Origin: Dehalococcoidia bacterium
GTDB lineage: Bacteria > Chloroflexota > Dehalococcoidia > SHYB01
Direction of reading: 5' to 3'
Length of the DNA: 64,000 bases
Assembly (NCBI GenBank): GCA_964291475.2
Contig: OZ220075.1
Location: forward strand, 118,312 to 182,311
Shown here: positions 4,791 to 61,806 of the stretch, in pieces
Numbering within the stretch: position 1 is the first letter of the stretch
Layout: every line of letters starts with the position of its first letter
The notes under the pieces: model-generated
The model's input: only the letters and a program-made list of their open reading frames with translations
Told to the model about the DNA's origin: nothing
Databases searched by the model: none
Made by a program: the position numbers and the translations under genes

Positions 4791-5312
4791 ATGGCGAAGT
4801 CGTGGGTGGAGCAGTACGAGAAGGAGCCATATCTTCCGATGGACGACGCGGATGTCTGGGCGTTTCTCGAATCACCCTCGGTGCGGACCATGGCCATGGC
4901 CACAGTCGGCAAGGACGGCATGCCCAGCAACAGCATCATCTGGTTCTTCAGCCGCGATCGGAAGGTCTACTTCAAGGCGTACCGGAAGCCGATGCGAAAG
5001 AAGACCCGCGACATCCTCAACTTCCCGTGGGTCTCCTGCACGGTCGACAATCAGATGGACGGATTCGACCAGTTCGGCGTCACTATCCTGGGTAAGGCGC
5101 GGATGATCGAGAGCCAGGACGAAATCGACGAGTTCCAGCGGCACTTCTACGCGAAGTACATGGCGTCGGGAGACGAAGAACGGCACGCCAAGGCCCGCGC
5201 CAAGTTCCGTACCGAGCACGTAAAGGCGGAGCACGCCTTTTTCGAGATCATCCCTGAGAAGATCTTCTCGTGGGACCGCCGAAAGTGGCTCACGCTGCTG
5301 GGCGAAGCGTAA
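4791..5312 (+). CDS. pyridoxamine 5'-phosphate oxidase-like (split-barrel FMN/F420-binding) protein, type c
   Basis: 173-aa ORF. MDDADVWAFLES...MAMATVGKDGMPSNSIIWF is typical of PPOX-class split-barrel proteins. Paralog of 7733..8278. Confidence 0.7.
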   Translation: MAKSWVEQYEKEPYLPMDDADVWAFLESPSVRTMAMATVGKDGMPSNSIIWFFSRDRKVYFKAYRKPMRKKTRDILNFPWVSCTVDNQMDGFDQFGVTILGKARMIESQDEIDEFQRHFYAKYMASGDEERHAKARAKFRTEHVKAEHAFFEIIPEKIFSWDRRKWLTLLGEA

Positions 5313-5326: not shown

Positions 5327-7714
5327 CTACGATGCACCCTTGGCGGCGGTGTTCAGACCCAGCAGGCCGGTGAGCACGTCGTCATTGTGCCCGCCGACGG
5401 CCGGCATGCCTCTGAGCGGCGCCGTCTCCCCGGAAAACACGGCAGGAAGACGGGGATGCTCCATGCGACCCCAGGGCTGGGCATGCTCGATCTTGGCGAT
5501 GAATCCGCGGGAGCGGAGGTGCCGGTCGTGGTAGAGCTGCTCCCCGGACTGGACCACGCCTGAGGGCACGCCTGCCTCCTGCAGCAACTCCATGACTTCA
5601 TATGGCATGTAGCCGCTCGTCCACTCGCCGATGCGCTCGTCCAAGGCGTCCTGGTGAAGCCGCCGGGACTCCAACGAGGCGAAGCGGACGTCTGCGGCCC
5701 AGCTCGGGTCTCCGGCTGCGGCGCAAAGGGCAGCCCAATGGGCATCGGTGAAACAGGCGATGACGCACCACTGGTCGTCACCCCGGCAGGGGTAGCAGCC
5801 GTGCGGTGCGGCGGTGAAGTTCCGGTTGCCCATGGGACCGATCTGTACCCCGTTGACCAGGAAGTGGAGCAGTCCCACCCCGGTGTTGGCCGTCGCGGCC
5901 TCCGAGCCGTCCACCTCGACGTGCTGCCCGGCACCGGTCCGCGCTCGGTATTCGAGGGCCGTCATGACCGCGCACGCGGCAGCGGCCGCCGCGTCGAAGT
6001 CCGTGTAGTACACCTTCGCTCTGCACTCTAGGGGTGAGTCGGGATAGCCCCACAGGGCGGCGAGGCCGGAGTCGGACATCATCTCTTGGCCGAAGGCTAC
6101 GTACCTCTTGTACGGGCCGTCCGACCCGAAGCCGGGCATGCCCACCGCGATGATGTCCGGCTTCACCCGCCTCAGGGCTTGGTAGCCGAGGCCGTGACGC
6201 TCGAGGACCCCAGGCGGGGAGTTGTCGATCACCACGTCGCTGAGACGGACCAGCTCCTTCAACACCTCGACTCCCGCGCCGGTCTTGAAGTCCACGGTGA
6301 CACTTCTTTTGCCGCGGTTGAGCTCGCCTACCATGGGCGTCAGCCGCTCCCCGCTGCGTCCTTCGTCTGGGGCGTGCTCAACCTCGACCTTGATGACGTC
6401 GGCGCCGAGGTCGGCGAGGTAGCGGGTGGCCAGGGGGCCCGCCCACATGCGGGTGAAGTCCACCACGCGCACGTCATGCAGCGGGGCGCACTCCGGCGTC
6501 GTGGCCGCCGGCGTCGCCGGCCTGCCCGTAGGCTGTGCCTCCGACGCTGTAAGGACCTCTTCGGTGTGCTGTCCGAGAGACGGCGCCGGACGGTACACCC
6601 GCCAGGGGGTCTTCCCCATCCGGTAGGGCGCTCCGGGGAATCGGAGCGCCCCCAGGCGCGGATGCGCCACCTCGGCGAACCATCCCCGGGCACGGTTCTT
6701 CGGACTCTCCACAACGTCCCGCAGCGTGTTGATCGGGATGGCGGACAGTCCCCGCTCCTGCGCGGCGGCGACGAACTCCTCCAACCCAAACCCGCTGACG
6801 AACTCCTGCATGCCGTCGATGACGAGGTCCTGGTTGGCGTAGCGGAAGTCGCGGTCTTCCCACAGAGGCTCTTTGAGCACCTCGTTCCCCATCCACTGCG
6901 CCAGTACCTGCCAGTGGCGCAGAAAGATCACCGAGACGCTGACCCACCGCCCGTCCTTGCAGCGGTAGTAGCCGCTCGGCGGCGGGGCGTTGGTGATGAG
7001 CCGTCCCGCCCTCCGCACGATTTGGCCGTCGAACGCGTACTTCGCCACGGTGAAGAGCAGATGCCCCACGACTTCCTGAAGGGACACGTCGACGTGGCGC
7101 CCCCAGCCCGTGCTCCGCCGGCCGTTGAGGGCCGCCAGGGTGGCGAAGGCGGCGTGCCGGGAGGCGAGCTGGTAGGCCAGGTCGAAGGGAGCCGCGCACG
7201 GCGGCTTGGCATCGTCGCCTTGGACGTACATCAGCCCGCCCATCGCCTGCGCCACCAGATCCGACCCCGAGAAGTCCCGATAGGGACCAGTAAGACCGAA
7301 CGGGGTGATCGACGTCATCACCAGCGCCGGGTTCGCCCGCGAGAGGTCGCCATAGCCCAAACCCCGTTCATCCAGAACCCCCGCCGGGAAGCTGTCGAGC
7401 ACGACGTCTGCCGTAGCCGCGAGGCGGCGCAGCCGCGTCCGGTCGCCGGCGGAGGCGAGGTCGAGGACAAGGCTGCGCTTGTTGGTGTTGAAGTAGAGGA
7501 AGTAGAGACTGCCTTCAGGTTGCTCGACGCCTTGGGCGAACGGGCCGGTTCCACGGGCGGGGCCTCCGTCCGGGGGCTCAATCTTGACGACGTCCGCGCC
7601 CATGTCGGCGAAGAGCTTGCCGCAGTGTTGGCCCATCGAGCCGCCAAGCTCCAGCACCCGGAGGTGCCCCAAAGCCGACGGCGGCCGGGCTTCAGACGGG
7701 GTCGAAGTCGTCAT
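5327..7714 (-). CDS. tandem-fused double family III CoA-transferase (CaiB/BaiF/Frc-like x2)
   Basis: 795-aa ORF with two complete domains. Domain 1 starts LRVLELGG...FADMGADVVKIEPPDGG. Domain 2 starts VRVVDFTRMWAGP...LADLGADVIKVE and carries VVIDNSPPGVLERHGLGY and TGAGQHVEV. Confidence 0.85.
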   Translation of the reverse strand: MTTSTPSEARPPSALGHLRVLELGGSMGQHCGKLFADMGADVVKIEPPDGGPARGTGPFAQGVEQPEGSLYFLYFNTNKRSLVLDLASAGDRTRLRRLAATADVVLDSFPAGVLDERGLGYGDLSRANPALVMTSITPFGLTGPYRDFSGSDLVAQAMGGLMYVQGDDAKPPCAAPFDLAYQLASRHAAFATLAALNGRRSTGWGRHVDVSLQEVVGHLLFTVAKYAFDGQIVRRAGRLITNAPPPSGYYRCKDGRWVSVSVIFLRHWQVLAQWMGNEVLKEPLWEDRDFRYANQDLVIDGMQEFVSGFGLEEFVAAAQERGLSAIPINTLRDVVESPKNRARGWFAEVAHPRLGALRFPGAPYRMGKTPWRVYRPAPSLGQHTEEVLTASEAQPTGRPATPAATTPECAPLHDVRVVDFTRMWAGPLATRYLADLGADVIKVEVEHAPDEGRSGERLTPMVGELNRGKRSVTVDFKTGAGVEVLKELVRLSDVVIDNSPPGVLERHGLGYQALRRVKPDIIAVGMPGFGSDGPYKRYVAFGQEMMSDSGLAALWGYPDSPLECRAKVYYTDFDAAAAAACAVMTALEYRARTGAGQHVEVDGSEAATANTGVGLLHFLVNGVQIGPMGNRNFTAAPHGCYPCRGDDQWCVIACFTDAHWAALCAAAGDPSWAADVRFASLESRRLHQDALDERIGEWTSGYMPYEVMELLQEAGVPSGVVQSGEQLYHDRHLRSRGFIAKIEHAQPWGRMEHPRLPAVFSGETAPLRGMPAVGGHNDDVLTGLLGLNTAAKGAS

Positions 7715-7732: not shown

Positions 7733-8278
7733 TCACTTGGCGGACTGGCCGGCGGCTTCCAGGACCTGAGGCCGCTTTCGCTTGTCCCAGGACAGGATCT
7801 TTGTCGGGGTTATTTCGACCCAAAGGTGTTCGAGGTCCCGCATGATGTTGGCCCACGAGGACGTCGGCCTTGGGCGAGCACCTTCCGCCTGCGCGGCCTC
7901 GGCTCGCTGCCTGATGTGCGCCTGGACCGCCGCGATGAGGTCCTGATCGTCGACGACCTTCGCCACGCCGGTAATGGCCGCCCCATAGACTTGGTTGCCG
8001 TCGCCGTTGGGCGTGACCGCCGCGGTGAGGCACACGTTCGGGTTCTCCATGATGTTGCGCACCTTCTTCTTCAACGGCTTCGCGAAGCAGTTGAAGTAGA
8101 TCTTGCCTTCATAAATGTAGACCCAGATCGTCGTGCAGTGCGGTATCTGGTCGTTCCCGCAGGTGGCGAGGTAGACGTCCTGCGCCTCGGGTGTCTCGAG
8201 GAACGCCCAGACCTCCTCGTCGGTCATTCTCGGATATTGAAATTTGTAGGTGCCGTAGATGCCCGCATCGGTCGTCAT
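7733..8278 (-). CDS. PPOX-like split-barrel protein, type c
   Basis: Only the last 181 codons of track ORF 7733..9490 look real (start ATG 8278, MTTDAGIYGTYKFQYPRMTDEEVWAFLE...). The upstream part is Arg/Gly-rich antisense of the permease and RidA genes. Paralog of 4791..5312. Confidence 0.75.
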   Translation of the reverse strand: MTTDAGIYGTYKFQYPRMTDEEVWAFLETPEAQDVYLATCGNDQIPHCTTIWVYIYEGKIYFNCFAKPLKKKVRNIMENPNVCLTAAVTPNGDGNQVYGAAITGVAKVVDDQDLIAAVQAHIRQRAEAAQAEGARPRPTSSWANIMRDLEHLWVEITPTKILSWDKRKRPQVLEAAGQSAK

Positions 8279-8322: not shown

Positions 8323-8799
8323 TCAGGCGACCTCGGCCACGAGCTCGATTTCGCAGCAGGCCCCGAACGGCAGAGCGGCGACGCCAACCGCCGCCCGGGC
8401 GTGCCGCCCCGACTCGCCAAAAGCCTGGACCAAGAGATCGGAAGCGCCGTTCGCGACCTTGTGCTGCTCGGCGAACTCGGGAGTCGAGTTCACCACGCAG
8501 AACAGCCGAACGATGCGGACCACTCTGTCCAGGCTTCCCAGATGCTGTTTCAGGCTCGCCAATGTGGCCAGGGCCGCGTGGCGCGCCGCGTCGTAACCCT
8601 CTTCTACGGTCAGCTCCGCCCCCAACCTTCCCGGCACCCTGGCTCCCTCCGCGTCTCTGCCGAGGTGTCCCGACACAAATGCCAGATTCCCCGAGACCAC
8701 AACCTCGACGTAGTTGGCGGCGGGTTGAGGCGCCGGCGGCAGGCGTGCGCCGTGGCGTTCGAGTCTGGCCTCGATGGCGGATAGTGTCGCGTCGCTCAT
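8323..8799 (-). CDS. RidA/YjgF-family protein
   Basis: 158-aa ORF. NYVEVVVSGNLAFVSGHL...VRLFCVVNS...ARAAVGVAALPFGACCEIELV fits the RidA-like fold. Confidence 0.75.
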   Translation of the reverse strand: MSDATLSAIEARLERHGARLPPAPQPAANYVEVVVSGNLAFVSGHLGRDAEGARVPGRLGAELTVEEGYDAARHAALATLASLKQHLGSLDRVVRIVRLFCVVNSTPEFAEQHKVANGASDLLVQAFGESGRHARAAVGVAALPFGACCEIELVAEVA

Positions 8800-8805
8800 G
8801 GCCCG

Positions 8806-9726
8806 TCAGACCTCCCGCCTCCCCCGTCCCAGGCGCGGGTCCCAGATGTCGCGCAGCGCATCGCCGAACAGGTTGAATCCGATCACCAACCAGGAGATGC
8901 CCAGGCCCGGGAAGATTACCATCCACGGCGCGGTCACGGCGAAGTCGCTGGCGGAGCCGGAGAGCATGCGTCCCCAAGAGGAATGGGGCGGCGGCACGCC
9001 GAGGCCCAGGAAACTCAGAGTCGCCTCGATCAACACCGCGGCGCCGAGGAAGCTGCTGGCGAGCACGAGATAGGTCGCGGTCACATTCGGCAGGATGTGG
9101 CGGAACATGATGCGCAACTGGGAAGCTCCCAGCGCTCGCGCCGCCTCCACGTACATATTCTCCTTGGCCGAGAGGACGGTGCCCCGAACCACGCGCACGG
9201 TGCTGGGAATGAAGATGATGGCTAGGGCGAGGACGACTTTGTCGGGGCCGCTTCCCAACGTCGCCACCAGCACCAGGGCCATGAGCAAATCGGGCAGAGA
9301 GAGCATGATCTCGACAATCCGCTGGCTCACGGTGTCGAGCCGGCCGCCCAGATACCCCGCGGAAACCCCCAACGCGAGCCCGATGAGCGATCCGAAACCC
9401 ACCGACGCAAAGCCCACGAAGACCGATATCCGCGCCCCGTGCACCATCCTGGACCACTGGTCTCTGCCCAGATCGTCGGTGCCGAACCAATGGTCTAGAC
9501 CAGGGCCTTGGAGCCGCACCCGGAAGTTCCCCTCATTGGGGTCGGCGAAACTGAACACGTCGGCGCCGATGGCCAGGACCACAATGACCGAAACCATAAA
9601 GAGGCCGATGAAGCCTATGGGGTGGAGACGCATCAGCCGCCAGGTCCGGGCAACGCGGTCGAGCGCCCACGAGGCCACGGCCGCCACGGGTCCGCTGGTC
9701 GAACGCTCTCTTGAGATTCGCATCAT
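8806..9726 (-). CDS. ABC transporter permease, DppC/OppC-type
   Basis: 306-aa ORF with FGTDDLGRDQWSR, multiple TM spans and C-terminal GDALRDIWDPR. Confidence 0.85.
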   Translation of the reverse strand: MMRISRERSTSGPVAAVASWALDRVARTWRLMRLHPIGFIGLFMVSVIVVLAIGADVFSFADPNEGNFRVRLQGPGLDHWFGTDDLGRDQWSRMVHGARISVFVGFASVGFGSLIGLALGVSAGYLGGRLDTVSQRIVEIMLSLPDLLMALVLVATLGSGPDKVVLALAIIFIPSTVRVVRGTVLSAKENMYVEAARALGASQLRIMFRHILPNVTATYLVLASSFLGAAVLIEATLSFLGLGVPPPHSSWGRMLSGSASDFAVTAPWMVIFPGLGISWLVIGFNLFGDALRDIWDPRLGRGRREV

Positions 9727-9739
9727 TACGGACCAATCA

Positions 9740-10723
9740 CTAGGACTGGACGCTCACCCTTGGATCAAGCCAGCCGTACAACAAGTCCACCACCAGGTTG
9801 ATCAAGATGAACGCGCCGGCCAGACAGAAGACGATTCCCTGCACAACGGGATAGTTCCGCACTTCGATGGAATCGAGCAGCAGCTTGCCAAGTCCGGGCA
9901 CGGCGAAGATGTTCTCCATCACGACGGTGCCGCCGAGGAGGTTGCCGAAGCTAACGCTCATGACCGTCACTACTGGTATCAGGGCGTTCCTCAGCCCGTG
10001 GCGAACGACGACCGTTGGGTTCGAAAGTCCCTTTGCCCTCGCGGTCCGGATGTAGTCTTCGCCGAGGACTTCGAGTAGCGACGACCGCGAGATTCGCGCC
10101 ACGATCGCCATGAGCGCGGTGCCGATGATGAGGGCGGGGAAGACCAGTTGGGAGAGGTTGTCCGATGGGTTGTCCCACAGAAGGTTCCGCCCGAATGGAG
10201 GCGACCAGTCGAAAAACCGCTGCGCTATGAGCAAGACCAGAAGCCCCAGCCAGAAGTTCGGCACGGCAAGGAAGGTGATGCTCCAGAGGCGCGATATCAG
10301 GTCGATGATGCTGTTCGGTCTGAGGGCCGAGGCGATGCCCAATGGGATGCCCATGAGGAGGCCGAAGGCTACCGACATGATGGCCAGCTGAACAGAGAGC
10401 AGCATTCCCTTGCCGATTTCACTGGCCACGGGTCTCCCCGTCGCAATGGACTCTCCGAAGCTGGCCCTCCCGACATCACCCAGCCAGTCGAGATACTGCA
10501 CGATGATGTGGCGGTTGAGCCCGAGCTGCTCCCGGAGCCTTTCTAGATCTTCGGGATCAACCCGCACGTTGGAGACATCGGCTCCGGGGCCGAGCAGGAT
10601 CAGGTACGCGACGTCCCCCGGCACGACACGCATGAGCAAGAAGACGAGGAACGTCGCCCCCAGGAGCGTGGGGACCACCAGCAGGAGTCTGCGTAAGAAG
10701 AATGCAGTCCGTGGGTTGCTCAT
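9740..10723 (-). CDS. ABC transporter permease, DppB/OppB-type
   Basis: 327-aa ORF with N-terminal FFLRRLLLVVPTLLG, then YIRTARAKGL...RHGLRNALIPV and C-terminal LDPRV. Confidence 0.85.
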   Translation of the reverse strand: MSNPRTAFFLRRLLLVVPTLLGATFLVFLLMRVVPGDVAYLILLGPGADVSNVRVDPEDLERLREQLGLNRHIIVQYLDWLGDVGRASFGESIATGRPVASEIGKGMLLSVQLAIMSVAFGLLMGIPLGIASALRPNSIIDLISRLWSITFLAVPNFWLGLLVLLIAQRFFDWSPPFGRNLLWDNPSDNLSQLVFPALIIGTALMAIVARISRSSLLEVLGEDYIRTARAKGLSNPTVVVRHGLRNALIPVVTVMSVSFGNLLGGTVVMENIFAVPGLGKLLLDSIEVRNYPVVQGIVFCLAGAFILINLVVDLLYGWLDPRVSVQS

Positions 10724-10742
10724 CGCGGGCCGAGGTTAAGCA

Positions 10743-10769
10743 AATGGCCCCCCTTTTCGGGGGGCCATT
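10743..10769 (-). promoter_or_regulatory. intercistronic stem-loop between SBP gene and first permease gene
   Basis: Perfect 11-bp inverted repeat aatggcccccc / ggggggccatt around a 5-nt loop. It is not followed by a U-run on the coding (-) strand, so it is not a canonical terminator. Confidence 0.6.
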
Positions 10770-10811
10770 CTAAGGGGTCGTCCTGCTAAAACGCCTGTCT
10801 GCGGGCGGGTG

Positions 10812-12665: not shown

Positions 12666-12926
12666 GCGGCCTCCTGAGTGCGGGCGCTGCGCGGGCGTGC
12701 GCGTCGTCTCCGGGGTTAAGCCCCTCGCAACAGATCCATTCGAGGGCGGGGCGCTATTGCTCGTATCTAGTAACATGGCCCCCAACCGTTGTCAAGCAAA
12801 ATTGACGCAACTTGACCATAGACTGCCCCACGATGACCGTTTTCGCAGCTTGGGAAGGAATTCACAAACAGTCTTCGTCGTTTCGCTGCCGGCCGGCCCG
12901 CCGCCGGCATAAAGGAAGAGTGAACC

Positions 12927-16071: not shown

Positions 16072-16491
16072 TCAGGCGGGGGCGAACTTGACCAGCGTCC
16101 ACTCGGGCGTGACGTCGTCGAACCTCACCTGCACCGGCATGTCGATCTCAATGGCCTCCAAGGGACACTCGACGATGCCGGTCACCATTCGGGGCCCCTC
16201 GTCAAGCTCGACGACGGCATAGGCATAGGGAACGTCATCCATAAAGGACGGATTGGCGGGCCGCCTGACGAGGGTGAAGCTATAGACGCGGCCCCTACCG
16301 CTCACTGGCCTCCACGCCCAGTCCGACGACAGGCAGTGCGGGCAGGTGTGCCGGGGGTAGAAGAAGAAGCGGTCGCAGGCGCCGCAGCGCGGGATGACCA
16401 GCTCGTGACGCTTGGCCGCCTCCCAGAAAGGCTTGGTCAGTTCGGGGTCCGCGGGTATCGGGACGGGCTTGGAATAGCCGTCGTCGCTCAT
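16072..16491 (-). CDS. Zn-ribbon/OB-fold protein (DUF35 family, thiolase-partner type)
   Basis: 139-aa ORF. CGACDRFFFYPRHTCPHC zinc ribbon followed by GRVYSFTLV...YAVVELDEGPRM OB-fold signature. Confidence 0.85.
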   Translation of the reverse strand: MSDDGYSKPVPIPADPELTKPFWEAAKRHELVIPRCGACDRFFFYPRHTCPHCLSSDWAWRPVSGRGRVYSFTLVRRPANPSFMDDVPYAYAVVELDEGPRMVTGIVECPLEAIEIDMPVQVRFDDVTPEWTLVKFAPA

Positions 16492-16555
16492 GGGCGCCTT
16501 ATTCCGCTGCTTCCGATCCGAGCAGGAGCGTGAACATCACGCTCGCGTCGCCCCC

Positions 16556-17661: not shown

Positions 17662-17777
17662 CTTGCCTCGCTCCCCTGCCGTTACGCTGGGTCGAGTATA
17701 GCCCGCGTCCTGGGGCGGCACAACGCAAAGTCCATGCCGGGGTGTAGAATCACCACGACCCCTTCGCCGAAACGACC

Positions 17778-18950: not shown

Positions 18951-18981
18951 TCCTCGCGCCGGTGCACGAGGGAGGCACATC

Positions 18982-19692: not shown

Positions 19693-19711
19693 CCCGCAAG
19701 GGAGCGTCCCG

Positions 19712-24192: not shown

Positions 24193-24248
24193 GACCGTCT
24201 CCCTGCCGAGAAGTCTGGCGGGCCGGAGGCCGTGCAGCGGTTGGCCCC

Positions 24249-36358: not shown

Positions 36359-36459
36359 GACCGGCAACCATCGACTCGGGCAAGGCGCAGTTGTCACGAG
36401 CCCCACGGCCCCCAGGCACCCGTGCGCACCCTATCCGGCGGGGCTACAATCACCCGCGC

Positions 36460-38503
36460 ATGGGCTATCGCATCGGCATCGACGTCGGGGGCACCTTCAC
36501 GGACTTCGTGCTGGCGAGGCCCGACGGCTCCATCGCCTTCACCAAGACCGCCTCCACGCCCGCTGACCAGTCGGACGGCGTCATGTCGGGCATCGCCGAC
36601 CTCGCCGAGGCCGAGGGGCTCGACACCGAGGGCCTGCTCGGACGCACCGAGCAGATCGTCCACGGCACCACCACCGGCGACAACATCCTCATCGAGATGA
36701 ACGGCGCGGCGACCGGCCTCATCACCACGATGGGCAACCGCGACCAGATCGAGTTCCGCCGCGGCTGGAAGGAGAACATCTGGGACCCGGCCTACCCGCC
36801 CCCGGTCCCCATCGCCCCCCGCCGGCGGCGCATCGACGTCCCCGAGCGCCTCGACTTCGACGGGACGGCGCTCACGCCGCTCGGCGAAGAGTCCGTGCGC
36901 GCCGCGGCGCGGAAGCTCAAGCTCAAGGGCGCCGAGTCCATCGCCGTCACCTTCCTCTTCTCTTATGTCAACCCAACGCACGAATTGCGCGCCCGCGAGC
37001 TCATTCTCGAAGAACATCCCAAGGCGCACGTTTCCCTCTCTCACGAGGTGATGCCCTCGGCGCCCGAGTTCGAGCGCACGAGCACCACCTTGGTCAACGC
37101 CTACATCGAGCCCCGCATTCGCGGCTACCTTGAGACGCTGACGGCCAAGCTCCGCGACGCCGGCTTCGCCCGCGAGCTCCTCGTCATGCTCTCCAACGGC
37201 GGTGTCATGACCACCGAATACGTGGCGCGCAAGGCCGTCTCGATCATCGGCAGCGGGCCCGCCGGCGGGGTGACCGGCGCCTGCTACGTCGCGGACGCCG
37301 CCGGCATCGAGGACTTCATCGCCGTCGACATGGGCGGCACCAGCTACGACGTCTGCCTGGTGCGCGGAGGCCGGCCCGCCGTCAAGTCGTTCTGGAACTG
37401 GCGCCACCGCTACCTCATCGGCCTGCCCTCAATCGACGTGCAGGCAATCGGCGCGGGCGGCGGCTCCATCGCCCGTGTCGTCGCGGGCGCCCTCCAGGTC
37501 GGCCCCGAGAGCGCCGGCGCCGAGCCAGGCCCCATCTGCTACGGACGCGGCGGGAGCAGCCCCACGGTAACCGACGCGAACCTTGTCCTCGGCTTCCTCA
37601 ACCCCGACGCTCTCGCCGGCGGCAAGCTCAAGCTGCGGGCCGAAGGCGTGGGTGAGGCAATCGAGGAGCAAATCGGGCGTCCCCTCGGCTTGGACGCCAC
37701 GGCGGCGGCCTACGGCATCTTCCGCATCGTCAACGCCAACATGACCCACGCGATCCGCCGCGCCTCGTCGGAGCAGGGCTACGACCCCAAAGACTTCACC
37801 CTCGTCGCCTACGGCGGCAACGGCGCGGTGCACGCCGGCGTCCAGGCCCGCGAGATGGGCATCGCCAAGGTCATTGTGCCCAAGGCCGCGCCCGCCTTCT
37901 CCGCGCTCGGCGTGCTGATCTCCGACCGGCTCGTCGAAGACACCCGCTCGTACATCGTCGGCGTCCCGAAGCCGACCTCGACCGGGTCAACGCCCTCTTG
38001 GCGATATGGAGGCTGCGGCGGGCGCGGAGCTAGCGCGCCCTCGGCGGCGGCGACGTATAGAGTTCTCCCGCTTCGCCAACATGCGCTACCCCGGCCAACA
38101 GTTCGACCTCAGCGTGCCGCTCCCATCGGGCACGGTCGTCCGCGCCGACCTCGAAGCGGCGGCCGAGTCCTTTCACCGCCTGCACGAGGAGTCCCACACC
38201 TACGCGCAGCGCGACCAGGCGCCCATCATCAGCTCGCTCCGCCTACGCGCCGCGCTCCCCGGGACCAAGATCCTTCTTCCTGAAACAAGCCCCGCTGAAG
38301 GCCCGCCCACTCCCAAACTGCATCGCCGCGCTTACTTCGACGGCTACGTCGACACCCCCGTCTTCGACGGCCCCTCGCTGGGCGCGGGAGCCCGAGTCGA
38401 AGGGCCCGCCATCATCGAGGAGCCCTTCACCACCATCGTCGTCTGGCCCCAGGACGCCGCCGAGGTCGACCGCTGGGGCAACTACGTCATGACCATCGGC
38501 TGA
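36460..38503 (+). pseudogene. hydantoinase/oxoprolinase A-family (HyuA-like) protein, frame disrupted between about 37966 and 38006
   Basis: ATG 36460 (MGYRIGIDVGGTFTDFVL) with AVDMGGTSYDV. The C-terminal part (EFSRFANMRYPGQQFDL...EEPFTTIVV) is in another frame (track ORF 38006..38503). A third frame reads EADLDRVNALLA in between, so there are one or two indels. Confidence 0.8.
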
Positions 38504-38510: not shown

Positions 38511-40919
38511 ATGTCCTTCCTTACCGGAATCAACGTGCTCGAATGGGGCGAGGCCCTCACCGCCCCATTCTGCGGCAAGGTGCTCGCCGACTTGGGGGCC
38601 GACGTCGTCAAGATCGAGCCGCCCGGCGGCGAGCCCGGCCGCGCCCTGCCGCCGTTCAAGACCGGCCCCGACGGCGAGCGGCACAGCCTCCTCTTCGAGC
38701 ACCTCAACGCGGGCAAGCGCAGCGTGACGATCGAGGGAGACGGCCCCGCCCTCGACCGGCTCGCGGCGTGGGCCGACGTCATCGTCGAAGGCCACCTCGA
38801 CTACGACCCCGCCGTTGCGGCCGCCCTCGAGCGCCTGCGCAAGGACCACCCGCGCCTCATCGTCACGTCGGTCAGCGCCTTCGGGCGCTCCGGCCCGCTG
38901 GCCCAGGCGCCGGGCTACCCATCCGTCGCCTTCCATATGAGCGGGGCCGGCTTCGTGACGCCGCCCCAGGTCGACAGCGTGGCGCAGCCGCCCCTCTCCC
39001 TGCCCGGACGCCCCGCCGCGATCATCGGCGGCTACTGCGCGGCGGCGGCGACGGTGTTGTCGCTCCTGGCACGCGACGCCGACGGACGCGGGCGCTACGC
39101 CGACATCGCCGAGGTCGAGGGGCTGATCGCCATGCTGGCGACCCCGCTGAACCAGTACTCCGGCCTGGGCACGATCGCCGCCCGCGACGAGCGTATCCAC
39201 GGCATGGCCCCCTTCGACTTCTACCGCGTCAAGGACGGCTGGGCGAGCATCTTCCTCGTGCAGGAGGCGCACTGGCAGCGGCTCGTCGAGCTCATGGGTT
39301 CGCCGGATTGGACCACGGCGCCAATGTTCGCCGACCGCCGCGTCCGGGGGCAGTACAAGGAAGACCTCAACAACATCATGCAGCCTTGGCTCGACGAGCA
39401 GGCCAAGGAAGACCTCTACCTACGCGCCCAGGCCAGGGACATACCCATCGGCCCCGCGCGGACGATGCAAGAGGTGCTGGCCGACCCGCACTTCGAGGCG
39501 CGCGAGGTCTTCGTCCGCTCGCCCCACCCGCGGCTCGGCGAGATGCTGCATCTCCGTCCGCCCTTCCGTTGGCGCGGCCAGAGCTGGACACCGCCGGGGC
39601 CCGCGCCCGGACCCGGCGAGCACACCGGGCGCGTCGAGGAGACTCCGCCGCCCTCGGCCGTGAGCAAAGAAGGCGGTGCTGAAGTCGCAGCGGCCTCTCC
39701 CCTTCCCCTCACCAACCTGCGCGTCATCGAGTTGGGCGCGGCCATCGCCTCGCCCTTCGGCGCGGCGACCCTCGCCGACGCCGGCGCCGAGGTCATCAAG
39801 ATCGAGACCGCGAAGCGTCCCGACAACCTCCGCAGCAACTGGCCGATGGCGGGCGGCGAGGCCGGCCCCGAGCGCAGCTACTACTACAACCAGGTCAACC
39901 GCCACGCCAAGAGCCTCACGCTCGACCTGACCACCGGCGAGGGGCGCGACGCCTTCCTGCGCCTCGTGGCCCTCAGCGACGTCGTCGTCGAGAACTTCGC
40001 CGCCGGAACCATGGAGCGTCTCGGCGTTCCCTACGACGTGCTTCGGCGGGCCAACCCCAGCATGGTCATGCTTTCGCTCAACGGCTTCGGCGACACGGGC
40101 CCCGCCAAGGACTTCATCGCCTACGGCCCGCTGCTCGAAGCGGTGACCGGCATGGCCGCACTCGCCGGCTTCGAGGACGGCCCGCCCGCCGCCTCCACCT
40201 TCGTCTACACCGACTACGTCTCGGCCATGGTGGGTGTGACGCTCATGCTCGCCGGCCTTCGACGGCGCGCCGAGACCGGCGAAGGGGCCTACTTCAACGT
40301 GGCCCAAGCCGAGGTCGCCTTGAACACGATGCCGGAGGCCATCCTCGATAGCGCCGTGAACGGCGTCCTCCCCACCAAGCCCGAGGACCGCGACCCCTTC
40401 GTCGCCATCCACGGCTCGTTCCGCTGCCTCGGCGAGGACGACGCGGACGACGACTGGGTTGCCATCGCCGTGCGCACCAATACCCATTTTCTCGGCCTGA
40501 AGGAGGCAATGGGAAATCCGGCCTGGGCAGATGATCCTCGCTTCGCAACCGACGAGGGACGGCGCGCCCACGCCGCCGAAATCAAGGCCCACGTCGGCCA
40601 ATGGACGCGGCGTTTACGAAAGCACGAGGCGGCAGACGTTCTTCGCAAACACGGTGTGCCCGCCGCCGCCGTCAACGACGTCCGCGACGCCCTCGACGAG
40701 CCCCACCTGCAGGCCCGCGGCTCGTTCCAGGTCGTCCGCCATCCCGTCATCGGCGAGGCGTGGACCTACCCCTCGCCGCTCAACCTGGAAGGGGTTCCCC
40801 GCGAAATTCGGCGCGGCGCCCCCCTCTGGGGCGAACACAACGACTACGTCTGCCGTGACCTTCTCGGCATGCCCCCCGGCGACGTCGAGCACCTCGTCGA
40901 GCGACGCGCGCTAATCTGA
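38511..40919 (+). CDS. tandem-fused double family III CoA-transferase
   Basis: 802-aa ORF. Domain 1 is INVLEWGEALTAPFCGKVLADLGADVVKIEPPGG. Domain 2 is LRVIELGAAIASPFGAATLADAGAEVIKIE with VVVENFAAGTMERLGVPY. Confidence 0.85.
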   Translation: MSFLTGINVLEWGEALTAPFCGKVLADLGADVVKIEPPGGEPGRALPPFKTGPDGERHSLLFEHLNAGKRSVTIEGDGPALDRLAAWADVIVEGHLDYDPAVAAALERLRKDHPRLIVTSVSAFGRSGPLAQAPGYPSVAFHMSGAGFVTPPQVDSVAQPPLSLPGRPAAIIGGYCAAAATVLSLLARDADGRGRYADIAEVEGLIAMLATPLNQYSGLGTIAARDERIHGMAPFDFYRVKDGWASIFLVQEAHWQRLVELMGSPDWTTAPMFADRRVRGQYKEDLNNIMQPWLDEQAKEDLYLRAQARDIPIGPARTMQEVLADPHFEAREVFVRSPHPRLGEMLHLRPPFRWRGQSWTPPGPAPGPGEHTGRVEETPPPSAVSKEGGAEVAAASPLPLTNLRVIELGAAIASPFGAATLADAGAEVIKIETAKRPDNLRSNWPMAGGEAGPERSYYYNQVNRHAKSLTLDLTTGEGRDAFLRLVALSDVVVENFAAGTMERLGVPYDVLRRANPSMVMLSLNGFGDTGPAKDFIAYGPLLEAVTGMAALAGFEDGPPAASTFVYTDYVSAMVGVTLMLAGLRRRAETGEGAYFNVAQAEVALNTMPEAILDSAVNGVLPTKPEDRDPFVAIHGSFRCLGEDDADDDWVAIAVRTNTHFLGLKEAMGNPAWADDPRFATDEGRRAHAAEIKAHVGQWTRRLRKHEAADVLRKHGVPAAAVNDVRDALDEPHLQARGSFQVVRHPVIGEAWTYPSPLNLEGVPREIRRGAPLWGEHNDYVCRDLLGMPPGDVEHLVERRALI

Positions 40920-47400: not shown

Positions 47401-48642
47401 GTGCGCCCGCTGGAAAACGTCCGCGTCATCGAATACGGCCCGTGGCTGAACGCGGCCTACGGCGGACGCCTGCTCGCCGACATGGGCGCCGAGGTCATCA
47501 AGGTCGAGTCGCCCGACGGCGGCGACCCGGGGCGCATACACGGCCCGTTCCCCGGCGACGCTCCCGACGCCGAGGCCGGCGCGCAGCACCTCTTCAACAA
47601 CGCCAACAAGCTCGGCGTCACCCTCGACCCCTCGTCCGCGACCGGACGTCGGCTCTTCCGGCAACTCACCGCAACCGCCGACGTGCTCATCGACGGCAGG
47701 CAGGCCGGCGACCTCGACGCCCTGGGCCTCGGCCACGAGTCGCTGGCGGACGACAACCCCCGTCTCATCACCGTCGCAGTGAGCAGCCTGGGGCGCTCCG
47801 GCCCCTACGCCGGCTACCGGGGCTACGACCTGACGAGTTGGCACGGCAGCGGCTCGTCCCACATCTACATGGGCGCGCCCGACCGGGAGCCGCTGCGTGG
47901 GGCGTACTACCACGCCAACCACTGGGGCGCGGTCTCGGTGGCGGCAGCCGCGATGATCGCCCTGCACGCGAGGGAGAAGACGGGGCGCGGCCAGGCGATC
48001 GACATCGCCGAGGCAGAAACGCTCGCCATGCTCTACATCGCCGTCGAGGTCAGCGACTACCTGATGAACGGCGCTGAAAAGGCCCGCGTCGGCCTGCGCA
48101 TGGACGGCAACGCCCCCACCGCGCTCCTCCCCTGCAAGGACGGCTACGTCTACCTCATGGCGCTCACCGACGAGCAGTGGGCGGGCCTGGTCGACGCGAT
48201 GGACAACCCCGACTGGGCGACGACGGACCTCTTCCTCGGCGGAGGACGGCAGCGCGCCGTCTACGCCCGCGAAATCTACGACCTGCTCCGGCCTTGGCTG
48301 CAGGAGAACACCGCCCAGGAAATCTTCGACCGGTGCCAGGCGCGCAGCGCCCCCGCCGCTCCGCTCTACACCGTCGCCGACCTCATGGCGAATGAGCACC
48401 TGACCGAGCGCGGCTTCTTCGTCGACCTGCCCGGCGAACGTTCCGGGCCCCTGCGCATCCCGGGGCCGCCCTTCCGTTTCGGCCGCGACCAGAGCGAGAC
48501 GCCGGCGTCGAAGACGCTGGCGCCGTGGGACGTCAAGCGCCGCGCCCCGCGCCTCGGCGAGCACAACCAGGCGGTCTACTGCGGCATGCTCGGCCTCGAC
48601 CGCGCCGAGCTGCCCGCGCTGCGGCGGGCGGGAGTCATCTAA
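47401..48642 (+). CDS. family III CoA-transferase, class-1 (divergent) subunit
   Basis: 413-aa ORF with a GTG start. VRVIEYGPWLNAAYGGRLLADMGAEVIKVESPDGGDPGR and TGRGQAIDI. Confidence 0.85.
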   Translation: MRPLENVRVIEYGPWLNAAYGGRLLADMGAEVIKVESPDGGDPGRIHGPFPGDAPDAEAGAQHLFNNANKLGVTLDPSSATGRRLFRQLTATADVLIDGRQAGDLDALGLGHESLADDNPRLITVAVSSLGRSGPYAGYRGYDLTSWHGSGSSHIYMGAPDREPLRGAYYHANHWGAVSVAAAAMIALHAREKTGRGQAIDIAEAETLAMLYIAVEVSDYLMNGAEKARVGLRMDGNAPTALLPCKDGYVYLMALTDEQWAGLVDAMDNPDWATTDLFLGGGRQRAVYAREIYDLLRPWLQENTAQEIFDRCQARSAPAAPLYTVADLMANEHLTERGFFVDLPGERSGPLRIPGPPFRFGRDQSETPASKTLAPWDVKRRAPRLGEHNQAVYCGMLGLDRAELPALRRAGVI

Positions 48643-49877
48643 TGGCCGGCGCGGCGTCCACCGGCAACCGCGACCTTCCCCTCGCCGGGCTGCGCGTGCT
48701 GAATCTGGGTTGGTACTGGGTCTGCGCCACGATGTCGCACCTCCTGGCTGATATGGGCGCCGAGGTCATCAAGGTCGACTCGCGCCAGCGGCTGGAGACG
48801 CTGCGCGGCATACCGCCGTTCATGGACGGCATCGAGGACCCCGACCACAACCTCTGGCTCCACAACCTCCTGCGCAACACCCAGAGCATCACCGTCAATC
48901 TGGAGACCGACGAGGGGCGGGAGCGGTTGCGCGACCTCGTCCGCACCGCGGACGTGGTGACGGAGAACTGGACGCCGGGCACGGTGGCGAAGCTCGGCAT
49001 CGACTACGCCTCGCTGCGCCCCTACCGGCCCGACCTCATCATGGTCTCTCCTTCGGCGGCGGGACAGTGGGGGCCCTACCGGCGCATCAACACCTACGGG
49101 CAGGTGATCAGCACGCTCGCAGGGCTCGACGCGGTCCAAGGCTACGCCGGGGAGCGGCCCTCGAACTTCGGTATGTCGATCATCGACCCGTTCGCGGGCC
49201 TGATGGCCTGCTACGCCGTGCTCGCCGCACTCCGCCGCCGCAACGAGACCGGCCAAGGCTGCCACGTCGACTTCTCGCAGTGGGAGATGTCGACGGCGAC
49301 GATGGGGCCGCTCTTCCTCGACTACCAGTGGAACGGCCGGCTGCACGGCCCCGACGGCAACCACGACCTGCTCTGCGTCCCCAACAACGTCTACCCCTCC
49401 GCCGGCGACGACCGCTGGGTGTCGATCTCGGTCTACGAGGAGAACGAGTGGCGGGGGCTGCTCCGCGCTTTGGGACGGCCCCGTTGGGGGCGCGACCCGC
49501 GCTTCGCCGACAAGTACCGGCGCAAGCGCAACGAGGATGTCCTCGACGAGCGCATCGCTGCGTGGACCAAGCGCCGCACGCACTACGAAGCGGTGGAGCT
49601 TCTGCAGGCCGAGGGCGTGGCCGCCTTCCCCGTCATGGGCTCCCGTGAGCTCTACAGCGACCCCCACTGGAAGGCCCGCGACTCCTGGCTCCAAGTCGAC
49701 CACACCCTCGGCCCCGAGTGGATCTACGGCGTGCACTGGAAATTCAGCGATACGCCGGCATCGGTACGGACGACGACGCCCCTCCTCGGCGAGCACAACC
49801 GCCGCGTCTTCGCCGACCTCATGGGTGCGGACGACGCGGAGTTCCGCCGCCTCGAAGCGGAGCGGGTCATCTACTAG
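48642..49877 (+). CDS. family III CoA-transferase, class-2 (canonical-looking) subunit
   Basis: ATG 48642 overlaps the upstream TAA by 1 nt (TAATG). LRVLNLGWYWVCATMSHLLADMGAEVIKVDS, VVTENWTPGTVAKLGIDY and TGQGCHVDF. Confidence 0.85.
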   Translation: MAGAASTGNRDLPLAGLRVLNLGWYWVCATMSHLLADMGAEVIKVDSRQRLETLRGIPPFMDGIEDPDHNLWLHNLLRNTQSITVNLETDEGRERLRDLVRTADVVTENWTPGTVAKLGIDYASLRPYRPDLIMVSPSAAGQWGPYRRINTYGQVISTLAGLDAVQGYAGERPSNFGMSIIDPFAGLMACYAVLAALRRRNETGQGCHVDFSQWEMSTATMGPLFLDYQWNGRLHGPDGNHDLLCVPNNVYPSAGDDRWVSISVYEENEWRGLLRALGRPRWGRDPRFADKYRRKRNEDVLDERIAAWTKRRTHYEAVELLQAEGVAAFPVMGSRELYSDPHWKARDSWLQVDHTLGPEWIYGVHWKFSDTPASVRTTTPLLGEHNRRVFADLMGADDAEFRRLEAERVIY

Positions 49878-58305: not shown

Positions 58306-58793
58306 ATGAGCCACCACGACCACGACCCTGTCCCTGAAGATGCCCAGGACTTCATGAAGAACAACGGCCGCACCTTCATGATCACCAAGCGCAAGGACGG
58401 CTCGCCGACGGCCCACCCATGGCGAGCTGGTACGGCGGCTTCCTCTACCTGAACATGTACAAGGCCAGCATCAAGTCGAAGAACCTCGACCGCGACCCCC
58501 GAATCTGCTGCGTCGTCACCAACCGCTCCGACGACGTCGACCTCGAGGCCGCCGTCTACCGGGCCACGGGCAGGAAGCTCACCGTCGACGAGGTATTCGC
58601 CGAGCGAGTCACCGATGGCCTGGCGTGGGCCCGCAACCCTCGGTCGGAGGGCTCCCAGGAGCAGCCCGACATTCCCGACGAGGACAAGCGCAAGATCGGC
58701 GACACGGCGGGCCGGATCAAGCGGGGCGTGCGCGTGATCTGGGAGCTCACCGCGAACAAAGCCGGCCTGATCCAGAACGTGCGGGAGGGCTAA
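58306..58793 (+). pseudogene. PPOX-like split-barrel protein, type a, 1-nt frameshift
   Basis: ATG 58306 follows GGAGG. ...RTFMITKRKDGSPTAHP is in one frame and MASWYGGFLYLNMYK... in the next. The junction is C-run 58416-58418. The paralog reads GSPTGHPMTGWY. Confidence 0.75.
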
Positions 58794-58795
58794 CC

Positions 58796-59237
58796 ATGCC
58801 GCGAGAACATCCCACCATCAAGATGACCCCGGACGAGATCGCTGCGTTCGTCTCGACGCAGACGCGCTGCATTCTCGGGACCCTCGACGCCGAGGGCGGC
58901 CCCTGGGGCGACGCCGCCGCCACCGTCCTCAGCAACGGCGCGCTGCACTTCCGCGTGCCCGCCTCCTCGGCCTCCGCCGCCAACATCGCGGGCGACGACC
59001 GCGTCGTCTGCGTCTTCGAGGAGCACCCCGAGGACACCGGCTACTACACCATCAAGGGCGCAATCATCCACGGTCACGCCGCGCCCTCCGACGACGCGGA
59101 GGCCAAGGCGGCGCTCGACGGCATCCCCGACCCGGTGACCCGCGCCCCCGAACCCGGCGGCGCGACCTTCACCGTCGGCCTCCGACGACACCGCGAGTTT
59201 CGACTTCGCCAAGATCAAGCGCCGCTTCGAACAGTAG
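58796..59237 (+). pseudogene. PPOX-like split-barrel protein, type b, 1-nt frameshift near its 3' end
   Basis: ATG 58796 lies 3 nt after the previous stop. After ...ATFTVGL the frame gives RRHREF.... Removing one C at 59182-59183 gives DDTASFDFAKIKRRFEQ-stop (TAG 59235-59237), matching paralog ...DDVTSFDFTKIKAKV. Confidence 0.75.
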
Positions 59238-59256
59238 CCGCCCCACGGAGGACGTT

Positions 59257-61806
59257 ATGGGAGAGGGCTTCCTCTTCGACATCAAGGCGATCGAGCTCGC
59301 CGACGAGAAGGCCGAGTTCTGCGGCCGGCTCCTCGCGGGCGCCGGCGCCGACGTGCTCAAGGTCGAGCCGCCCGAAGGAAGCCCCACCCGCAAGATCGGA
59401 CCCTTCGTCGACGACGTCCCCGATCCCGAACGCAGCCTCCACTTCTGGCACTACAACTTCGGAAAGCAGAGCCTCGCCCTCGACGTCGCCACCCCGGCGG
59501 GAGCTGAACGCCTGAAGGAGCTCGCCGCCGGCGCCGACGTCCTGTTGGAAAGCCACCCGCCGGGCTATCTGGCGAGTCTCGGCCTCGGCTACGACACGCT
59601 CAGCGCCATCAACCCGCGCCTGGTCATGGCCTCGATCACGCCCTTCGGGCAGACCGGGCCGTGGAAGGACTGGAAGGGCGCCGACATCGTGCACCTCGCC
59701 CTCGGCGGGGTCATGATGGTCACCGGCTACGACCCCACGCCCGAGGGCTTCTACGACACGCCGCCCATCGCGCCGCAGATGTGGCACGCGAACCACATCG
59801 TCGGCAGCCAGACCCTCGACGCCATCCTCGGCGCGCTCCTCTACCGCGAGCGCACCGGCCGCGGCCAGCACATCGACGCTTCCATCCACCGCGCCGTCAG
59901 CTGCAACACCGGCACCGACACCACCGCCTGGGTCTTCGGACGCCAGGGTGTGCTGCGCCAGACCGCCCGCTACGGCTCCTCCCGCATGGTCCCCGAGACC
60001 CTCGCCACGACCAAGGACGGCCGTCACATTCTCGCCTTCGTCTCCGCCGAGTTCATGATCGGCCGCGAGCACAAGAAGTGGGTCGAGATGCTGGAGAAGT
60101 ACGGCTGCGCCGACGACCTCACCGACCCCAAGTACGAGAACCTCGAATATGTCATGACCCCCGAGGTAATCCGCCACTTCCACGCCGTCGCCCGCACCTG
60201 GGTCGGCAAGTTCAAGTTCGACCGCGACATCTGGAAAGAAGGCCAGGAGCGGCGGCTCCACTGGGCCCCCATCCGCAAGCCGGAGGAGAACCTTCTCGAT
60301 CCCCACTGGCGCGAGCGGACGACCTTCACCGAGGTCGAGCACGAAGAGCTGGACCGCAGCGTCTCCTACGTCAACGCCCCCTGGCTCTCCGAGGAATGCC
60401 CCTGGCGCACCGGGCCGCGCGCCCCGCGCCTAGGCGAGCACAACGCCGCCCTGGTCACCGACCTCGAACAGGCCGGCGCCGTGCCCAAAGACGCGCCGGA
60501 GTTCCCCGGCCCGCGCGCCAACGGCGACCCGCCCTTCGCCATCGAGGACGTGCGCATCCTCGACCTGGCCTGGGTCGTGGCCGGTGCCGCCGGGCCTCGC
60601 ATCCTCGCCGCAATGGGCGCGCAGGACATCCGCGTCGAGTGGAAGGGCCGCTACGACACGATGCGCAGCTTCGGCGGCATCCCCGTCGGCGAGGAGCGCG
60701 ACCGCGTCCTCCGCGGCGAATCGCTCATCCCCACCCGCGTCGGCGTGAACGCCGGAGCCGGCTTCGCCGAGGTCAACCCCGGCAAGATGAGCATCGGCCT
60801 CAACCTCAACGACCCCAAAGGCGCGGAGATCCTGCTGGAGCTGGTGAAGGTCTGCGACGTCGTCGTCGAGAACTTCACCGCGCGCATGCTGGAGCGCTTC
60901 GGCGTCACCTACGAGGACATGCGCAAGGTCAACCCCTCGATCATCTACGTCCAGCAGCCCGGCTTCGGCAAGCGGGGCAAGTACATCGAGTTCCTCTCCT
61001 CGGCCCCGGTCGGCGAGGCGTTCAGCGGCCTCACTGAAATGGCCGGCATGCCCACGCCCTACCCGCCCTCCGGCTGGGGCTACCTCTACCTCGACTGGAG
61101 CGCCTCCTACTACTGCGCCATGGCGATGCTCAACGCGCTCTACTACCGAGCCCGCACCGGCAAGGGGCAGTACATCGACGGCTCGCTCGGCGAGCCCGGC
61201 CTCCTCCTCACCGGCACCGCCATGCTCGACTCCCAGGTCAACGGACGGCAGTGGCAGCGCATCGGCAACGCCTCCCCCTGGAAGCCCGCCGCGCCCCACG
61301 GCGCCTACCGCTGCAAGGGCGACGACCGCTGGATCGCCATCGCCGCCTTCACCGAAGAGGAGTGGCAGGCCGCCGCCGCCGTGCTCGGGCTCGGCGCGGT
61401 CGCCGGAGAGGCCCGCTTCGCCACGCTGGAGGCTCGCCTGAAGAACGCCGCCGCGCTCGACGCCGCCGTCGACGCCGCCGCCCAAGCCTGGGACCCCTTC
61501 GACCTCATGGAGCGCCTGCAGAACGCGGGCGTCGCCGCCGGCGTCTGCCAGAACGCCCCCGACCGCATCGAGCGCGACCCGCAGCTCCGCCACGACCAGT
61601 GGATGGTCCCCGTCACCAACACCGAGGTCGGGGAGTGGCCCATCCGCCAGTTCCCCATCAAGCTCTCCGAGACGCCCACGCGCCCCCAGGGCACCGTCGG
61701 CCGCGGCCACCCCAACTACGCCGAAGACAGCGACTTCGTCTACGGCGAACTCCTCGGCATGCCCGAAAGCCACCGCCAAGCCCTCGCCGACCAGAACGTC
61801 ATCTAG
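59257..61806 (+). CDS. tandem-fused double family III CoA-transferase
   Basis: 849-aa ORF. Domain 1 is IKAIELADEKAEFCGRLLAGAGADVLKVEPPEGSP. Domain 2 is VRILDLAWVVAGAAGPRILAAMGAQDIRVE with VVVENFTARMLERFGVTY and TGKGQYIDG. Confidence 0.85.
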   Translation: MGEGFLFDIKAIELADEKAEFCGRLLAGAGADVLKVEPPEGSPTRKIGPFVDDVPDPERSLHFWHYNFGKQSLALDVATPAGAERLKELAAGADVLLESHPPGYLASLGLGYDTLSAINPRLVMASITPFGQTGPWKDWKGADIVHLALGGVMMVTGYDPTPEGFYDTPPIAPQMWHANHIVGSQTLDAILGALLYRERTGRGQHIDASIHRAVSCNTGTDTTAWVFGRQGVLRQTARYGSSRMVPETLATTKDGRHILAFVSAEFMIGREHKKWVEMLEKYGCADDLTDPKYENLEYVMTPEVIRHFHAVARTWVGKFKFDRDIWKEGQERRLHWAPIRKPEENLLDPHWRERTTFTEVEHEELDRSVSYVNAPWLSEECPWRTGPRAPRLGEHNAALVTDLEQAGAVPKDAPEFPGPRANGDPPFAIEDVRILDLAWVVAGAAGPRILAAMGAQDIRVEWKGRYDTMRSFGGIPVGEERDRVLRGESLIPTRVGVNAGAGFAEVNPGKMSIGLNLNDPKGAEILLELVKVCDVVVENFTARMLERFGVTYEDMRKVNPSIIYVQQPGFGKRGKYIEFLSSAPVGEAFSGLTEMAGMPTPYPPSGWGYLYLDWSASYYCAMAMLNALYYRARTGKGQYIDGSLGEPGLLLTGTAMLDSQVNGRQWQRIGNASPWKPAAPHGAYRCKGDDRWIAIAAFTEEEWQAAAAVLGLGAVAGEARFATLEARLKNAAALDAAVDAAAQAWDPFDLMERLQNAGVAAGVCQNAPDRIERDPQLRHDQWMVPVTNTEVGEWPIRQFPIKLSETPTRPQGTVGRGHPNYAEDSDFVYGELLGMPESHRQALADQNVI

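Follow-up and report, generated by a model that had tools for sequence, protein, structure and literature searches.

Three two-domain family III CoA-transferases of a Dehalococcoidia bacterium as probable single-chain heterodimers of the BbsEF type

Two-domain genes and a stand-alone pair

The stretch of DNA analysed here, 64,000 nucleotides of contig OZ220075.1 from a Dehalococcoidia bacterium (G+C 66.5%), is referred to as the window and carries three long genes, F1, F2 and F3, each encoding a two-domain coenzyme A (CoA)-transferase of family III (CaiB/BaiF/Frc). F1 lies on the reverse strand (5327..7714, 795 amino acids, aa), and F2 (38511..40919, 802 aa) and F3 (59257..61806, 849 aa) on the forward strand, all three as intact open reading frames (ORFs). 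Single domains of the same family are encoded on the forward strand by S1 (47401..48642, 413 aa) and S2 (48642..49877, 411 aa). A preliminary description, made from the sequence alone, had reported the three ORFs and the 47401..49877 pair at these positions, and all of them are uninterrupted. We corrected the start of S2 to the ATG at 48642, in place of the 450-aa ORF that begins at 48525. This ATG shares one base with the TAA stop of S1 (TAATG), an arrangement that is identical in the syntenic locus L001 (loci fetched from other genomes are numbered in this way).

Membership of F1, F2 and F3 in family III was established by full-length matches to the Pfam profile CoA_transf_3 (PF02515), the E-values for the whole proteins being 1.7e-195, 2.7e-177 and 1.8e-151, respectively. 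Each protein matches the profile in two stretches of 505-650 bits, at a cut-off of 23.3 bits, and in the second halves the match runs over positions 1-366, 1-366 and 2-356 of the profile; S1 and S2 match in one stretch apiece. A search of all six frames of the window with a hidden Markov model (HMM) of the domain found exactly eight family III domains. The preliminary description had counted the same number and had seen two complete domains in each ORF; both statements stand, and the outcome that it had named as contrary, a significant match for one half only, did not occur. The linkers between the halves are rich in Pro, Ala, Thr, Ser and Gly, much as first described (Pro/Ala/Thr-rich). The opening motif proposed for all domains holds approximately only: its R-V pair is found in six of the eight domains, with N-V in the N-half of F2 and K-A in that of F3, and its LAD reads LAG in the N-half and LAA in the C-half of F3.

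Unequal halves and the catalytic aspartate

The two halves of each protein are unequal. Within one protein they share 24-31% identity, and the best match of F1 residues 17-390 in the Protein Data Bank (PDB) is chain A of 9FN0, that of residues 412-787 being chain B. This entry is BbsEF, the heteromeric succinyl-CoA:(R)-benzylsuccinate CoA-transferase, whose subunits we call here by their PDB chain letters. When the eight domains of the window and both BbsEF chains were scored all against all, the bit scores gave a type A group, formed by the three N-halves, S1 and chain A, and a type B group, formed by the three C-halves, S2 and chain B. The members of type B are consistently best with one another and those of type A mostly so, with some overlap across types (153 for the N-half of F1 with the C-half of F2). 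By HMM domain coordinates, the A-type half of F1 occupies 6512..7681 (residues 12-401) and its B-type half 5333..6490 (residues 409-794), both on the (-) strand. On the (+) strand, the A- and B-type halves lie at about 38511-39635 and 39699-40898 in F2, and at about 59269-60498 and 60532-61788 in F3.

The types differ at the nucleophile. The title of PDB entry 9FOL names a 'D178-CoA adduct'; position 178 is the Asp of 'NYTD' in chain B and an Ala in chain A. Aligned to D178 are Asp572 of F1 (codon 5999-6001), Asp568 of F2 (codon 40212-40214), Asp613 of F3 (codon 61093-61095) and Asp182 of S2 (codon 49185-49187), whereas the A-type domains have Tyr181 (F1), Ala170 (F2), Asn179 (F3) and Asn173 (S1) in the same column and no Asp. 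This column agrees with the numbering of the mutant entries for D169 of Frc/CaiB and D175 of Rv3272, and 4ED9, the Brucella Frc and human SUGCT all align an Asp to it. From these alignments, we identify the nucleophile as the Asp about 30 residues downstream of a 'GxD' site. The 'GxD' Asp itself (D152 in F1) had been considered as the catalytic residue, which would have made the N-half the active one and left F2 without a nucleophile; this candidate was overturned by the title of 9FOL, the residue count in chain B and the D169 and D175 entries.

The same asymmetry extends to the relatives of these proteins. F1 D572 is invariant in 69 homologues, and in a survey of 237 two-domain homologues (P0001-P0235 among them) the C-half column is Asp in all but one (236/237). 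For the two-domain PtmU4 group, too, an Asp conserved in the C-terminal domain has been described, and Asp430 of PtmU4 may stand in this column. The N-half column varies, with Tyr in 86, Ser in 30, Asp in 26, Glu in 24 and other residues in the remainder. The 'GxD' site shows the opposite distribution, with Asp or Glu in 205 of the N-halves (Asp152 in F1) and Gly or Ala in 233 of the C-halves. F2 has Pro137 in place of this acid, and the Pro is kept in all six full-length orthologues that cover the site. It may be added that the N-half acid is Glu rather than Asp in 91 of the 237.

The homodimeric enzymes Frc, YfdW, CaiB, SUGCT and Rv3272 share the fold and the nucleophile position of the C-halves, but each of their chains has a single domain, and two chains interlock into a symmetric homodimer that has two active sites. 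In these enzymes Asp stands at both the 'GxD' and the nucleophile sites, whereas each half of F1-F3 has at most one of these, so that the halves look like complementary degenerate copies. Because only the C-half has the nucleophile Asp, each protein appears from these comparisons to be a pseudo-heterodimer on a single chain, its one canonical active site lying in the C-half. BbsEF (PDB 9FN0, 9FOL, 9FUN), which both halves match best in sequence (33-36% identity) and in structure, is alike in that chain B has the nucleophile and chain A is without it, the N-half corresponding to chain A and the C-half to chain B. Its two subunits are separate polypeptides; in the window, one nucleophile-bearing and one nucleophile-less paralogue are found on one chain (F1-F3) or in coupled genes (S1/S2).

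Structure models of F1 and F2 were built by AlphaFold2 with alignments of 69 and 78 sequences, respectively. Mean confidence (predicted local distance difference test, pLDDT) was 93.0 for both, with a predicted template-modelling score (pTM) of 0.94 for F1 and 0.95 for F2, and low confidence was confined to the linkers, at about residues 391-410 of F1 and 380-399 of F2. When the F1 model was searched with Foldseek, chains B/D of BbsEF came on top, with a target-normalised TM-score (TMt) of 0.89-0.90 and a root-mean-square deviation (rmsd) of 1.7-1.8 Å, and chains A/C gave a TMt of 0.86; rmsd across the BbsEF chains was 1.7-2.3 Å, and SUGCT, YfdW, Frc and others ranked after them. Each half of F1 superposes in this way on a complete BbsEF subunit. 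The intertwined dimer typical of the family agrees with a model in which two halves, each like a monomer, are held with confidence in a fixed mutual arrangement, and from the models each fused protein very probably folds as a covalent pseudo-dimer. A covalent pseudo-dimer had been anticipated in the preliminary description; the two complete domains and the confident fold agree with it, but the unequal halves turn it into a pseudo-heterodimer with one canonical site.

Fused and split forms in other genomes

Equal-length orthologues of all three genes recur in other assemblies. F1 has a 795-aa orthologue at 91% identity (P0001), the F2 orthologue in L001 has 802 aa at 90% identity and lies on a 2.79-Mb contig, and residues 1-849 of F3 align in a single frame at 98%, 97% and 92% identity with other Dehalococcoidia assemblies, these being metagenome-assembled genomes (MAGs). 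The top 120 database matches to F1 and to F2 are all CoA_transf_3 proteins, nearly all of about 780-870 aa and spanning the whole query; homologues of about 800 aa number more than 100 at full length for F1 and more than 230 overall. Since orthologues of equal length recur in independent assemblies, we conclude from the alignments that the fusions of F1, F2 and F3 are not artefacts of this assembly.

The window does contain genes that are split between frames, namely those for valyl-tRNA synthetase (ValRS, 32897-35636), a HyuA-like protein (36391-38503), a MaoC-like protein (40933-42056) and a PNPOx-like protein (58796-59250), with possible further cases in a sulfatase gene (22747-25118) and a thiolase fragment (16556-16795). 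The ValRS, HyuA and MaoC-like genes are intact in L001 (895, 680 and 374 aa). This pattern, which includes the essential ValRS, speaks for indel errors of the assembly and against pseudogenes. Errors of this kind break frames and do not join them.

Two relatives of F3 (55-59% identity) are split. In L047 there are two genes in different frames, and in L057 the two parts share a frame and only one TAG, followed nine codons on by a Met, stands between them; some Rhodococcus plasmids also have two adjacent genes in place of one fused gene. These forms indicate repeated fusion and fission of coupled subunit genes, and, as read from the aligned genes, split and fused forms interconvert among the relatives of F3. 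Moreover, the C-terminal tail of S1 ('...LGLDRAELPALRRAGVI') is replaced by the linker in the fused N-halves, from which it appears that the junction evolved and was not a simple read-through. The fusion would have arisen from adjacent, translationally coupled subunit genes like S1/S2, in which the stop codon and the C-terminal tail of the first subunit were lost and a Pro/Ala-rich linker remained. The coexisting split, stop-separated and fused relatives of F3 make a clear natural case of gene fusion between the subunits of an obligate heterodimer, and they could be a template for engineering single-chain enzymes of the BbsEF type.

The closest relatives are in Dehalococcoidia MAGs, which places the window in that class. 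Full-length F3-type proteins at about 46% identity are found in cultured Actinomycetota and Alphaproteobacteria (Amycolatopsis, Rhodococcus, Streptomyces, Nocardia, Reyranella and Vineibacter), and others are encoded on megaplasmids of Paraburkholderia, Rhodococcus and Mycolicibacterium, where they are annotated 'CoA transferase'. Other matches carry the names Binatia, Desulfobacteraceae and Acidimicrobiia. A lineage-specific expansion of the architecture had been suggested; the architecture itself is not specific to the lineage, given the full-length relatives in Actinomycetota and Proteobacteria. Indeed, Dong et al. (2018) counted 2,401 two-domain homologues as of 2017, with a poorly conserved linker and a conserved Asp in the C-terminal domain. 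For genes of about 800 aa annotated as 'CoA transferase' in Chloroflexota, Actinomycetota and Proteobacteria, the best reading is that of a heterodimer on one chain with a single active site, and this alters estimates of paralogue counts and catalytic capacity in SAR202 and Dehalococcoidia genomes.

The density noted in the preliminary description is real, five genes and eight domains in 64 kb being high, but it fits an expansion that has already been published. Landry et al. (2017; PMC5395668) report a CaiB/BaiF expansion in the marine SAR202 Chloroflexota, with 62 genes in five partial genomes. As in the window, many family III genes are accompanied there by multiplied hydrolase, oxidoreductase and transporter families; in contrast to the present analysis, their treatment of these genes, as far as it is drawn on here, consists of gene counts without discussion of the two-domain architecture or its asymmetry. 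We counted extra family III genes in the flanks of the fetched loci only, because every locus is centred on a two-domain gene and a density per 64 kb would be biased. By this rough count there are nine in about 190 kb of Dehalococcoidia vs three in about 400 kb of other phyla, a several-fold excess that fits the known expansion. In several Dehalococcoidia loci (L009 at 8652-11093 and 12313-13509, L013, L016, L041, L057), F3-type genes are followed by more two-domain or single family III genes, which shows local tandem amplification; in L009 two fused genes stand back to back. Both the architecture and the expansion of paralogues in the lineage are therefore already in the literature, and F1-F3 are uncharacterised members of a described architecture.

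Proposed function, its alternatives and the neighbouring genes

We propose that F1-F3 are type III (CaiB/BaiF/Frc) CoA-transferases built as single-chain heterodimers of the BbsEF type, with one canonical active site and a predicted ATP-independent transfer, and we hold this to be probable. The N-terminal A-type half, its nucleophile lost, would most likely be indispensable as a partner, without which the intertwined fold of the dimer and the pocket for the substrate would be incomplete. By analogy, the Asp of the C-half would form the acyl-anhydride and CoA-thioester intermediates, and CoA would be moved from a donor thioester to organic acids without ATP, feeding the acyl-CoA catabolic enzymes that are multiplied in the genome. 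Identity to BbsEF is only 33-36%, and the window ORFs covered by the Pfam scan include no bss genes for a glycyl-radical benzylsuccinate synthase, so that the substrate very probably differs from benzylsuccinate and a place in a bbs/bss operon of anaerobic toluene degradation is not supported.

Several observations weigh against this proposal or narrow it. About 50 of the 237 homologues have Asp or Glu in the nucleophile column of the N-half, so one active site is not the rule throughout the class, and some of its members, judged by this column, may have two. The N-halves also retain the conserved 'GxD' acid and an N-terminal motif of the CoA-binding type, and thus may not be catalytically inert; the N-half of F2 is without even that acid. 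The interlocked topology is read from pTM and from superposition of each half rather than from chain threading, and, like the catalytic mechanism and the part played by the N-half, it is a prediction. Finally, the NCBIfam equivalogs scored (succinate-glutarate CoA-transferase, succinyl-CoA:mesaconate CoA-transferase, Frc, YfdE, CaiB and mesaconyl-CoA isomerase) all fell far below their cut-offs, the best reaching 265-362 bits, for whole two-domain proteins, vs the required 413-750, so that no substrate can be assigned.

Other accounts of the architecture fare worse. Each chain could be a symmetric covalent pseudo-homodimer with two equivalent catalytic domains and two active sites, as the strong, nearly full-length CoA_transf_3 matches of both halves and the 'LADxGAxVIKxE'-type N-terminal motif in both would allow, but the low identity between halves that are each nearer to a different BbsEF subunit, together with a nucleophile Asp in three of three C-halves and none of three N-halves (Y181, A170, N179), makes this highly improbable. 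That adjacent subunit genes were joined in the assembly by an indel or a lost stop has a practically negligible chance: the frameshifts relative to the syntenic genome (ValRS, HyuA, MaoC-like, PNPOx) and the split relatives of F3 give it some ground, yet all three genes keep their length and architecture in independent assemblies, more than 230 homologues are of about 800 aa, full-length versions occur in the genomes of cultured strains, and the fused N-halves are without the C-terminal tail of stand-alone A-type subunits.

With regard to function, two characterised enzymes share the architecture, and the premise of the preliminary description that characterised family III enzymes are single-domain proteins is incorrect for this reason. 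DddD (Todd 2007; Alcolombri 2014), the first to be characterised, has about 820-840 aa and two tandem CaiB-like domains (PMC7174347), and it is the best Swiss-Prot match of some SAR202 CoA-transferases in the account of Landry et al. (2017, PMC5395668), so that F1-F3 might be thought to be dimethylsulfoniopropionate (DMSP) CoA-transferase/lyases that release dimethyl sulfide. However, such a best match is weak evidence, DddD having long been the sole two-domain entry available, and Dong et al. place DddD as the outgroup to other two-domain proteins. DddD is surrounded by transporter, dehydrogenase and regulator genes, and among the window ORFs scanned with Pfam there is no BCCT-type transporter (DddT), DddB/DddC-type dehydrogenase or ddd regulator; on this context and on its description DddD is set apart, and we consider this function very unlikely. 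PtmU4 (Dong et al. 2018) resembles F1-F3 in its tandem family III domains, its conserved C-terminal-domain Asp and its poorly conserved linker, the linkers of F1 and F2 being those of low pLDDT. It makes thiocarboxylic acids, and by the same function F1-F3 would transfer sulfur onto an acyl-CoA. PtmU4 adjoins an acyl-CoA synthetase, and the cassette is defined by an adjacent PtmA3 homologue, whereas no AMP-binding or ligase gene was found near the three genes among the Pfam-scanned ORFs; the reported thioacid group is, moreover, restricted to Actinobacteria, Beta- and Gammaproteobacteria, and these genes are from Chloroflexota. Thioacid formation is accordingly a most improbable role. For F2 alone, a partnership with the gene directly upstream has to be considered. 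This gene (36391..38503, forward strand) encodes an ATPase like HyuA or the caprolactamase alpha subunit, with Hydant_A_N and Hydantoinase_A in one frame and Hydant_A_C in another, and its best NCBIfam match is CapA, at 629 bits under a cut-off of 1000 bits. It lies directly upstream of genes of the F2 clade in the window, in L001 (5950-7992) and in L061 (281-2344), with gaps of 8-25 nt, the adjacency being kept where the orthologues are 90% and 70% identical. A search of the neighbourhood showed no Hydantoinase_B or CapB partner, in the F2 region of the window or in L001, which makes it an unusual solo alpha subunit, and the F2 clade alone has Pro at the N-half 'GxD' acid. F2 might then work with the ATPase in an ATP-dependent reaction beyond simple CoA transfer; but the clade is small, adjacency alone is no proof that the two are linked physically or mechanistically, and F2 keeps Asp568 and a confident canonical fold, so that we regard such a partnership as unlikely.

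Some residual novelty lies only in the pairing of F2 with the CapA-like gene and in the complementary degeneration of the halves, and no new class of system is opened; the value of the comparison is chiefly in annotation and interpretation. It is a speculative suggestion that loss of the nucleophile in the N-half and of the 'GxD' acid in the C-half would leave one composite and one dead site, and that the F2 clade with its CapA-like ATPase would be part of an undescribed, in Dehalococcoidia, ATP-dependent system of ring opening or carboxylate activation coupled to CoA thioester formation.

The other neighbours of the fused genes recur to some extent with them. Downstream of F2 are genes for a MaoC-like protein, an Amidohydro_3 protein and a PNPOx-like protein, and a PNPOx gene also follows the F2 orthologues. 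Two tandem PNPOx-like genes of the PPOX class (Pfam PNPOx_N) lie directly upstream of F3 (58419..59250, forward strand), the second changing frame near 59215, and the order PNPOx-PNPOx-F3 is kept in orthologues of at least 72% identity. F1 is flanked by PNPOx-like genes at 4791..5312 (+) and 7733-8278 (-), with PNPOx_N E-values of 4.8e-16 and 3.9e-10. The window thus has five genes of this fold, near every fused gene (4791-5312(+), 7733-8278(-), 43889-44392(+), 58419-58793(+) and 58796-59250(+)), and their matches to F420-dependent PPOX models are weak and sub-threshold. Genes for RidA-like, glyoxalase and Amidohydro_2 proteins and for an ABC transporter are also near F1, and genes of the F3 type have an Amidohydro_2 gene as a recurring neighbour, even those of Streptomyces and Amycolatopsis. 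A gene for a HerA/DUF87 ATPase (45613-47304(-)) stands between the PNPOx genes and the S1/S2 pair and is kept in L001 (14306-15985) and L060 (4699-6453).

Besides the transferases, the window has genes for an acyl-CoA dehydrogenase, an enoyl-CoA hydratase, MaoC-like hydratases, a thiolase/DUF35 pair and a thioesterase. A beta-oxidation set at 16072-20506, comprising a ChsH2/DUF35 OB-fold zinc-ribbon protein, a thiolase fragment, an acyl-CoA dehydrogenase, a DUF169 protein and an enoyl-CoA hydratase, is bbs-like and reminiscent of BbsAB/BbsG/BbsH, and does not adjoin the fused genes. Just downstream of F3, at 61921-62666, a unit of about 150 bp is repeated in about five tandem copies of 87-100% identity. 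Partial copies were found in the window at 53222-53279, in L012 (8565-8633 and 12411-12500), in L005 and in L006, and the unit looks like a dispersed intergenic repeat of the lineage. A gene for an HNH endonuclease (63050-63679(-)) lies beyond the array. The sole Rfam matches in the window are two adjacent tRNA genes at 27995-28147(-).

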